Below are positions 4,594-4,648 of a stretch of DNA of 8,473 nucleotides, one piece after another. Under the pieces are notes generated by a model. That model was not told where the DNA came from. It saw nothing but the letters and a program-made list of their open reading frames with translations, and did not search any database. Each line of letters starts with the position of its first letter. Position 1 is the first letter of the stretch. The translations under genes and the position numbers were made by a program. Origin of the DNA: a virus (lineage: Duplodnaviria > Heunggongvirae > Uroviricota > Caudoviricetes); the IMG/VR virus record IMGVR_UViG_2663762857_000030, positions 1 through 8,473 of that record, one strand, 5' to 3'.

Positions 4594-4648
4594 TTGCACA
4601 AAATGCAATCATGATTATAATCATAACTGGATGAACATCCAGTTATGA
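4594..4648 (+). promoter_or_regulatory. Strong sigma70-like promoter overlapped by two perfect palindromes (candidate operators)
   Basis: -35 TTGCAC (4594-4599), 16-bp spacer, -10 TATAAT (4616-4621). A 14-bp palindrome ATGATTATAATCAT (4611-4624) contains the -10. A 13-bp-arm perfect inverted repeat TCATAACTGGATG-AA-CATCCAGTTATGA (4621-4648) covers the predicted start site. Confidence 0.5.

Follow-up and report, generated by a model that had tools for sequence, protein, structure and literature searches.

How does a phage satellite set the time at which its capsid genes are expressed? The question is raised by a stretch of 8,473 nucleotides (positions 1 to 8,473 of the virus record IMGVR_UViG_2663762857_000030, called the window throughout), which, judged by its gene content, is an EcCICFT073-type Gram-negative phage-inducible chromosomal island (PICI), a satellite of Escherichia coli phages, and which covers most of an island of about 11 kb. 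E. coli PICIs are switched on by AlpA, an activator that the helper phage induces, and a keyword search of the PICI literature returned no account of what governs the genes for capsid and morphogenesis that lie behind the replication module. A first-pass annotation of the window had described a promoter in front of the capsid genes, overlaid by two perfect palindromes, and had preferred to read these as operators of a repressor encoded by the satellite or its helper. Our analysis points to the host instead. We consider it fairly likely that the capsid genes are served by a sigma-70 promoter that LexA occludes at its start site, where both the binding of LexA and the inducibility by the SOS response are predictions.

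A putative LexA box at the start site of the capsid promoter

The region from 4594 to 4655 on the plus strand reads as the sigma-70 promoter of a four-gene capsid operon, and we predict it to be moderately strong. Its -35 hexamer, TTGCAC (4594-4599), agrees with the consensus at 3 of 6 positions and its -10 hexamer, TATAAT (4616-4621), at 6 of 6; the two are separated by 16 nt, within the 16 to 18 nt that sigma-70 promoters use. The geometry of such promoters puts the transcription start at 4628-4629, 7 to 8 nt past the -10, and a ribosome-binding site, AAAGAGGAA (4660-4668), in alignment columns that are invariant or nearly so, precedes the first gene of the operon, which encodes a protein of 68 amino acids. 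The first-pass annotation had placed the -35, the 16-nt spacer, the -10, a 14-bp palindrome and a CTG-N10-CAG motif exactly where we find them. Its description of the promoter as close to the consensus was too generous, since the overall agreement is 9 of 12, and matches of this quality occur in the window at the frequency expected by chance (10 found, compared with 11.7 +/- 3.1 in shuffled sequences). A promoter scan that asked for at least 4 of 6 matches in each hexamer did not list the TTGCAC-N16-TATAAT site.

The credibility of the promoter comes from its conservation. We aligned the DNA preceding the 68-aa gene at 139 loci (72 distinct sequences), which came from E. coli genomes, from contigs with a distant homologue of its product (Salmonella enterica, S. 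enterica subsp. diarizonae, Pluralibacter gergoviae and further assemblies), from viral contigs and from metagenome contigs. Scans of the genome collection with the capsid protein and with an alignment of the 68-aa homologues gave no match. The pattern TTGC-N18-TA[TA]AA[TC] is present at fixed spacing in 139 of 139 loci, and among the 72 unique sequences the -10 reads TATAAT in 64, TAAAAT in 7 and TATAAC in 1. Because this geometry is conserved throughout, and because two strong terminators also precede it, we regard the promoter as credible, and the earlier assignment of it to the capsid operon is upheld.

Several other candidates for the region were rejected. A sigma-54 promoter, TGGCAC-N5-TTGCA, has a spacing that is off by 2 nt and lacks the GG; as a TTGC-N6-TTGC site of the lambda CII type, the region fails because the second repeat runs in the opposite orientation and is offset; a sigma-dependent pause element, TATGAT at 4644-4649, is replaced by TGTGAT, CCTGAT or GATGAT in relatives; and the best match to the Fur box GATAATGATAATCATTATC, 14 of 19 at 4607, is at chance level, being reached in 34 of 200 random windows and in 120 of 2000 random AT-rich segments.

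Over the predicted start lies a candidate LexA (SOS) box, AACTGGATGAACATCCAGTT (4625-4644). It begins 3 nt past the -10 hexamer and covers approximately positions -4 to +16 relative to the predicted start, inside the -35 to +20 or so over which a box overlaps its promoter, and it has the palindromic CTG-N10-CAG core of SOS boxes (CTGGATGAACATCCAG, 4627-4642). Its heterology index (HI) is 7.34, or 20.2 bits, on a symmetrized Berg-von Hippel matrix rebuilt from 18 published E. coli boxes (PMC3009722), the values of which differ from the indices of Lewis et al. When each of the 18 proven boxes was left out of the matrix in turn, their HI values ranged from 1.98 to 16.98, so that the box in the window is mid-range, with 10 of the 18 scoring better. 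It falls between the boxes of sulA (7.30) and cho (8.02) and outscores those of lexA, ruvA (8.64), ftsK, uvrD, dinG, dinB and polB. The second-best 20-mer in the window has an HI of 17.0, and none of 300 random windows of equal composition reaches 7.34. The box of ruvA reads CGCTGGATATCTATCCAGCA in the K-12 sequence; its half-sites, CTGGAT and ATCCAG, are the same as those in the window, and the 12 outer core positions of the two boxes are identical. On these grounds the core of the long inverted repeat appears to be a good LexA box, with a predicted affinity, as judged from the HI, resembling that of the ruvAB or cho boxes.

The first-pass annotation had remarked on a likeness to an SOS box and had doubted it on the ground that the spacer is not AT-rich. 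The likeness proves stronger than it supposed, down to the exact ruvAB half-sites, and the objection is no real obstacle with an HI inside the range of proven boxes. Its suggestion of a palindromic operator over the start site is also supported, and LexA would fit its idea of a host protein that couples expression to helper induction.

We propose the following sequence of events. In undamaged cells, a LexA dimer bound to the box would block the formation of the open complex by RNA polymerase, or the exit of the polymerase from the promoter. DNA damage would activate RecA, LexA would cleave itself, and the capsid promoter would fire. The capsid, decoration and scaffold-like proteins would then be produced while the SOS response is also inducing lambdoid helper prophages, and the capsid genes are thus probably switched on by the same signal as the helpers. 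LexA-controlled expression of this kind would be independent of the AlpA switch of E. coli PICIs, which, according to published work, depends on the helper and not on SOS, and which drives excision and replication.

Conservation of the box in related islands

A box with an HI of 6.06 to 10.18 is found in 128 of the 139 loci, and CTG-N10-CAG stands at the same offset in 126. The offset, 3 nt past the -10, is constant in E. coli and in both Salmonella lineages. In Pluralibacter, the box (AACTGGATGTTTGTCCAGTT, HI 9.07) is kept even though it has shifted by 12 nt and the outer arms of the repeat have been lost. The shift is due to an insertion of 12 nt, AACTGAATTTTT, which duplicates the AACTG start of the box and pushes the box and the following T-run downstream (positions 2440-2475 of the two P. 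gergoviae loci, L012 and L013); a short hairpin followed by six U residues lies there entirely inside the predicted transcript.

Within the box, CTG and CAG are invariant; what varies is the pair of flanking positions, the bases at the center and one further position, through a C-to-A substitution. This last change, C15A, is recurrent; it breaks a G-C pair of the stem and yet improves the match to LexA (HI 6.42) by moving the half-site toward the consensus ACAG. The substitutions seen in the box raise the HI by 0.7 on average, compared with 2.23 for all possible single changes (p ~0.017), which suggests a bias toward compatibility with LexA. Perfect 15-nt arms of the long inverted repeat are confined to 36 of the 139 loci; the 14-bp palindrome is perfect in 65, and its 12-bp core in 122. 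Both perfect palindromes are peculiar to the variant that the window represents. As far as the alignment can tell, conservation follows the LexA box rather than the long palindrome.

The most variable bases of the whole region are 4624-4626, between the -10 and the CTG. Otherwise near-identical islands carry TAA, GAG, GGA, GAT, CAA or GAA at this place, and the HI moves between approximately 6 and 10 with them. As these bases lie in the discriminator of the promoter, their variation could tune repression or promoter strength from one variant to another.

Expression of the capsid operon in CFT073

The model island EcCICFT073 has a -10, LexA box, hairpin and leader identical to those of the window, and a published RNA-seq experiment on strain CFT073, in which the culture was shifted from 23 to 37 C, reports c1498 to c1501 as notably raised. 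In its supplementary table, the log2 fold changes of the four genes are +2.24 (c1498), +2.05 (c1499), +1.45 (c1500) and +1.17 (c1501), all significant, and those of the genes upstream, ssb (+0.24) and perC (+1.89), and of the gene downstream, c1503 or rpp (+0.33), are not significant. The block as a whole (L142:463-2497, corresponding to 4678-6712 of the window) rises two- to five-fold at 37 C, roughly a four-fold gain for the operon, in the only expression dataset that we found for it. These data fit a separate transcription unit that starts before c1498 and ends before rpp. In the same table, sulA, dinI, umuD, dinB and uvrB are unchanged, and because the SOS genes do not move, the rise with temperature is not an SOS response; it speaks neither for nor against control by SOS. 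We found no SOS or LexA transcriptome or chromatin immunoprecipitation (ChIP) data in the literature that cover c1498 to c1503.

Several observations count against control by LexA and have to be set beside those in its favor. The promoter has at least one input, temperature, that is independent of LexA, and silencing of the H-NS (nucleoid-protein) type would be a reasonable guess, as the region is only 29.8% GC. The half-sites are CTGG and CCAG and not the commoner CTGT and ACAG, and the center, GAAC, is not AT-rich. A lineage of the L002 type (10 of the 139 loci) keeps the promoter without a box (HI of at least 19.7), and LexA control is hence dispensable for the family. The loci are for the most part E. 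coli copies that are close relatives of one another, so that our counts exceed the true tally of independent events. The LexA reading also leaves unexplained the 6 bp of additional complementarity on each side of the box, the few compensated changes in them and the invariant T-run. Our literature search, the coverage of which was incomplete, found no electrophoretic mobility shift assay, footprint or ChIP of LexA on the capsid-promoter site.

The long inverted repeat as a possible RNA element

The repeat in which the box is embedded has arms of 15 nt, AATCATAACTGGATG (4619-4633) and CATCCAGTTATGATT (4636-4650), that are 100% complementary and separated by 2 nt. The earlier observation of a perfect inverted repeat was thus correct, with the arms 15 nt long and not 13. 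A run of T residues, TTTTTT (4650-4655, plus strand), follows directly, and may be the U-tract of a terminator or no more than a U-rich leader that precedes the ribosome-binding site; a run of 5 to 7 T residues is present in all 72 unique sequences. A stable stem-loop with a U-tract immediately behind it is what defines an intrinsic terminator, and a terminator scan listed the element at 4619-4655 (14 pairs, 4 of them G-C, with a loop of 4).

Two much stronger terminators lie 100 to 180 bp upstream. T1 (AGCCGGAGCAATCCGGC followed by TTTTTT, 4446-4468, plus strand, found by the terminator scan) folds at -12.6 kcal/mol (z -3.9), and T2, with perfect arms of 14 nt (4478-4516), folds at -23.4 kcal/mol (z -4.5). 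T2 has an A-run on its left and a T-run on its right, and looks bidirectional. Both are rich in GC, and they part the capsid operon from the upstream module in every lineage that we read. The pair stands directly 3' of the PerC-like gene and is seen in E. coli, Salmonella, Pluralibacter and the L017 lineage; islands without perC have it as well.

It is conceivable, though unlikely, that the palindrome is used twice, with the core of the DNA serving as the LexA operator and the full RNA hairpin with its U-run serving as the last of three terminators. The 15-bp hairpin would then seal the capsid operon off from the early and replication transcript driven by AlpA, and the island would receive two strictly separate inputs, one from the helper through AlpA for replication and one from the host SOS response through LexA for the structural genes. 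Alternatively under this scheme, a processive antiterminator of the AlpA type would need to pass all three terminators. Dual selection, for recognition by a protein and for pairing in RNA, would explain why an invariant core is flanked by arms that compensate.

Rather improbable, in our judgment, is the simpler idea that the palindrome acts mainly as an RNA terminator or attenuator, the third after T1 and T2, and that it resembles a LexA box by coincidence. Its role would be to halt transcripts running on from the replication module under AlpA, or else a processive antiterminator would override it; AlpA of Pseudomonas aeruginosa is reported to be an antiterminator. The fold itself speaks for this idea, as RNA transcribed from upstream over 4612-4660 folds at -19 kcal/mol (z -5.8). 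The start predicted at 4628 lies inside the left arm, however, and the operon's own RNA therefore cannot form the hairpin; from that start it folds at -7.1 kcal/mol with a z of 0.04. An alternative upstream promoter, TTCATA-N18-TATCAT, would transcribe the hairpin and was rejected, as Salmonella, Pluralibacter and the L017 lineage do not keep its -10. The hairpin that lies wholly downstream of the predicted start in Pluralibacter agrees with a function in RNA.

Covariation can be argued both ways. In the alignment of the 72 sequences, 91% of the cells are paired, and changes that preserve pairing include T-A to C-G (L005 clade), T-A to G-C (L079 and L095) and C-G to T-A (L058/L065). Where G replaces A in the left arm, the result is a G-U wobble, which pairs only in RNA of the plus strand. 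Cells with a double change number 17, compared with 6.1 +/- 1.9 in shuffles, and exceed the number in all 500 shuffles; 6 of the 17, however, come from misaligned rows of the L002 lineage, and the compensated events that are independent amount to approximately 4. Compensated changes in quasi-palindromes can also arise without selection, through template-switch mutation during replication. Furthermore, 35 of the 72 unique sequences do not form the pair 80-102, the hairpin of the L002 lineage is not significant (z 0.5), and pairing in Salmonella is reduced to the core. Among the 12 core positions there is no covariation; they are invariant apart from C15A, a pattern expected of recognition by a protein. 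A known RNA family was rejected, the best Rfam match scoring 23 bits against a gathering score of 208. We conclude that a terminator function of the hairpin is possible but secondary, and would matter only to RNA that escapes T1 and T2. If LexA is the main ligand of the site, the outer flanks and the T-run are secondary features that may terminate read-through RNA or may have no function.

Search for a specific repressor

We consider quite unlikely the reading preferred by the first-pass annotation, in which a dedicated repressor encoded by the satellite or its helper binds the long repeat, alone or together with the 14-bp palindrome, as its operator. In favor of it, perfect complementarity over arms of 15 nt goes far beyond what chance would give, and YATGATTW occurs three times around the -10 and the box. 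Against it, the outer arms are perfect in few loci, position 4624 is hypervariable, and in S. diarizonae an indel of 1 nt between the core and the outer arm alters the spacing of the half-sites. The 14-bp palindrome (ATGATTATAATCAT, 4611-4624) contains the -10 and consists mostly of it, being the near-symmetric -10 (ATTATAAT) with 3 bp on each side. Its compensation is no greater than in shuffled controls, and, as it is also perfect in fewer than half of the loci, the notion of a tight operator pair does not stand.

A candidate site for a second regulator is the conserved block upstream of and including the -35 (4560-4609, plus strand), the columns of which are invariant or nearly so in every lineage, even in the one that has no LexA box. 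Since this exceeds what a -35 and a spacer need, the block may hold the site of another protein, and the conservation of the -35 and spacer motifs in the absence of the box can be cited in favor of a specific repressor. The block contains a 20-nt direct repeat, ATCATTTCATAATTTGCAAT (4560-4579) and ATCATTGCACAAAATGCAAT (4590-4609), with a period of 30 bp, and an inverted repeat, TTGC-N7-GCAA (4594-4608), that overlaps the -35. The upstream ATTGCA/TGCAAT repeat covaries no better than shuffles, and neither the motif of the block nor any motif related to the long repeat recurs in the rest of the island; a search of the window for another site of this regulator gave none. An element-encoded repressor is further disfavored by the distribution of one candidate, the PerC-family gene (4175-4423, Pfam E = 7e-35) between the single-stranded DNA-binding protein (SSB) gene and the capsid operon. 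It is present in the islands of CFT073, 042 and O157 and at the Salmonella locus L010, and is missing from many others (L001, L005, L006 and L008), which keep the same capsid promoter. Because of this absence, it looks like accessory cargo and not like a regulator of the promoter. For a repressor encoded by a helper, we note that no phage in our collection shares similarity with 4540-4884.

The 68-aa protein was the other candidate within the island, since its N-terminal sequence had led us to suspect a ribbon-helix-helix autorepressor; that idea is unsupported, though not disproved. No family or fold was detected by Pfam, a PDB sequence search, AlphaFold or Foldseek. The protein of the window has no Pfam match, and one homologue matches BrnA weakly (E = 0.017). 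The best PDB sequence matches are two designed helical-repeat proteins (E = 0.006 and 0.014), for which no single stretch passes. The AlphaFold model has two helices (predicted local distance difference test [pLDDT] score of 74.7), the best Foldseek match in the PDB has an E of 3.9, and these searches showed no DNA-binding fold.

Finally, we think it very unlikely that the promoter is real and the palindromes play no regulatory part, with a mutational bias keeping the quasi-palindrome and with promoter strength and H-NS-type silencing setting expression, for, although the induction by temperature without SOS in CFT073, the local GC content (29.8%, compared with 49.2% for the window) and the lineage that manages without a box would all suit such a view, a box with an HI of 7.3 exactly at the start is found in 0 of 300 random windows, and the box is retained across genera and when displaced, with substitutions that stay compatible with LexA.

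The island and its genes

Assignment of the element rests on the annotation of L001 and of L142 (EcCICFT073), on Pfam and PHROG matches and on the published description of the family. The layout matches that of the Gram-negative PICIs described by Fillol-Salom et al., and the features of the class are present: int, alpA, a primase, ori-side genes, homologues of the lambda capsid proteins E and D, Rpp and cos sites, within a size of 10 to 12 kb. In the E. coli relatives, the island is inserted in tqsA. The order of genes is integrase, a small AlpA-type helix-turn-helix (HTH) protein, Icd-like genes, DUF4222, primase (1436-3190), SSB (3754-4164), the PerC-family gene, the capsid genes and an HTH protein.

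The controlled operon (4678-6712, plus strand) is defined by Pfam and PHROG matches, by an identical order in EcCICFT073 and by the joint change of its genes in the RNA-seq data. It comprises the gene of the 68-aa protein (4678-4884, phrog_3255, the equivalent of c1498) and those of a major capsid protein of the lambda E type (4884-5939, c1499), a decoration protein of the gpD type (5951-6286, c1500) and a phrog_1999 protein (6299-6712, c1501), which resembles the C-terminal (scaffold) part of a head protease; all are on the plus strand. In EcCICFT073, c1498, c1499, c1500, c1501 and c1503 (rpp) follow one another in this order, and phoQ comes next.

Downstream of the operon, the rpp-like equivalent of c1503 (6875-7309) encodes an HTH protein of 144 amino acids with R21, T22, T23, R25, W27 and K29, the positions described as DNA-contact residues of RppC (PMC6739421). 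Because these residues are present, the product is, as far as its sequence can tell, very probably a protein of the Rpp kind, named for redirecting phage packaging. PHROG groups its N terminus with small terminase subunits. The gene is flanked by two inverted copies of the lambda cosN core, GGGCGGCGACC, at 6774-6784 (plus strand) and 7514-7524 (minus strand), which correspond to cos1 and cos2 as reported for EcCICFT073. The open reading frames at 6740-7021 (minus strand) and 7391-7870 (plus strand) have a peptide in common, which indicates that the cos region was duplicated in inverted orientation.

Boxes of the LexA type also occur elsewhere in these islands. L002, which belongs to the lineage without a box at the capsid promoter, has a strong one near its integrase gene (AACTGTACAAAAAACCAGTA, L002:1526-1545, HI 7.9, a value that 0 of 300 random islands reach). 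This box begins at the integrase stop codon, approximately 30 bp upstream of a TATAAT, and the early genes follow. L001, a complete island, has two boxes of lower quality between int and alpA, at 4965-4984 (HI 12.1) and 5076-5095 (HI 11.2), which approximately 3% of random islands equal. This raises the possibility that SOS wiring may occupy different points in different PICI lineages. Between the two boxes of L001 (4985-5030) is a run of short NNAACAA repeats (GCAACAATGAGCAACAATGTGGAACAACTACGAACAA), which could be arm-type sites of the recombinase or AlpA sites.

Implications and comparison with known systems

The presence of the box in EcCICFT073 and in approximately 90% of the relatives sampled predicts that the capsid genes answer directly to DNA damage in the host. 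The main value of this prediction is that it is concrete and readily testable in an established model island. It would bear on the role of the satellite's own capsid homologues, which are dispensable for transfer, in that deletion of c1499 or c1500 did not reduce it. It would also concern engineered PICI "drones," in which c1498 to c1501 are exchanged for cargo, as the native promoter would respond to both SOS and temperature. Our literature search, which was not exhaustive, found no paper that links LexA with Gram-negative PICIs.

Among known arrangements, the late promoter of lambdoid phages with its Q protein and the AlpA system of P. aeruginosa resemble the capsid promoter in having a strong -10, a hairpin with a U-run within approximately 30 nt and, in the case of AlpA, a protein of that family encoded on the element. 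The difference is that the start here lies inside the left arm, which leaves the promoter's own RNA without the terminator. We identified no Q- or AlpA-binding element near the capsid promoter. An antitermination cassette of this type was rejected on the same ground, as a transcript that includes the hairpin is predicted only in Pluralibacter, by virtue of its 12-nt insertion.

The closest relative of the box itself is that of ruvAB. The two have the same CTGGAT...ATCCAG half-sites and spacing, with an HI of 7.34 here and a leave-one-out HI of 8.64 for ruvA. They differ in the center (GAAC here, ATCT in ruvAB) and in the flanks (AA/TT here, which is closer to the consensus, and CG/CA in ruvAB). 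The site in the window is also embedded in a longer palindrome with a T-run and is carried by a mobile element.

LexA-repressed promoters are themselves familiar on mobile elements, as in the colicin operons and in prophage antirepressor genes like tum of phage 186. There, as predicted here, the SOS repressor of the host times the expression of the element from a box at or just past the -10. The genes controlled in those cases serve lysis, toxin or induction functions, whereas those in the window encode homologues of structural proteins of a satellite.

The strongest parallel in organization is operon I of the pathogenicity islands found in Staphylococcus aureus (SaPIs), the packaging and capsid-morphogenesis module, for which Ubeda et al. 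(2007) showed control by LexA. In both systems, a morphogenesis module of a satellite stands behind its own promoter with a box for the host LexA, demonstrated in the SaPIs and predicted here, and excision and replication are placed on a separate helper-dependent switch, Stl in the SaPIs and AlpA in the island described here. The components differ: the Gram-positive LexA box is not CTG-N10-CAG; the genes are unrelated, as the SaPI module encodes TerS, CpmAB and Ppi, whereas the operon in the window encodes capsid and decoration homologues of the lambda E and D types; and Rpp, which redirects packaging, appears to lie outside the controlled unit in the window. If the prediction is true, satellites of Gram-positive and Gram-negative hosts would have converged on the same wiring, the logic of SaPI operon I.

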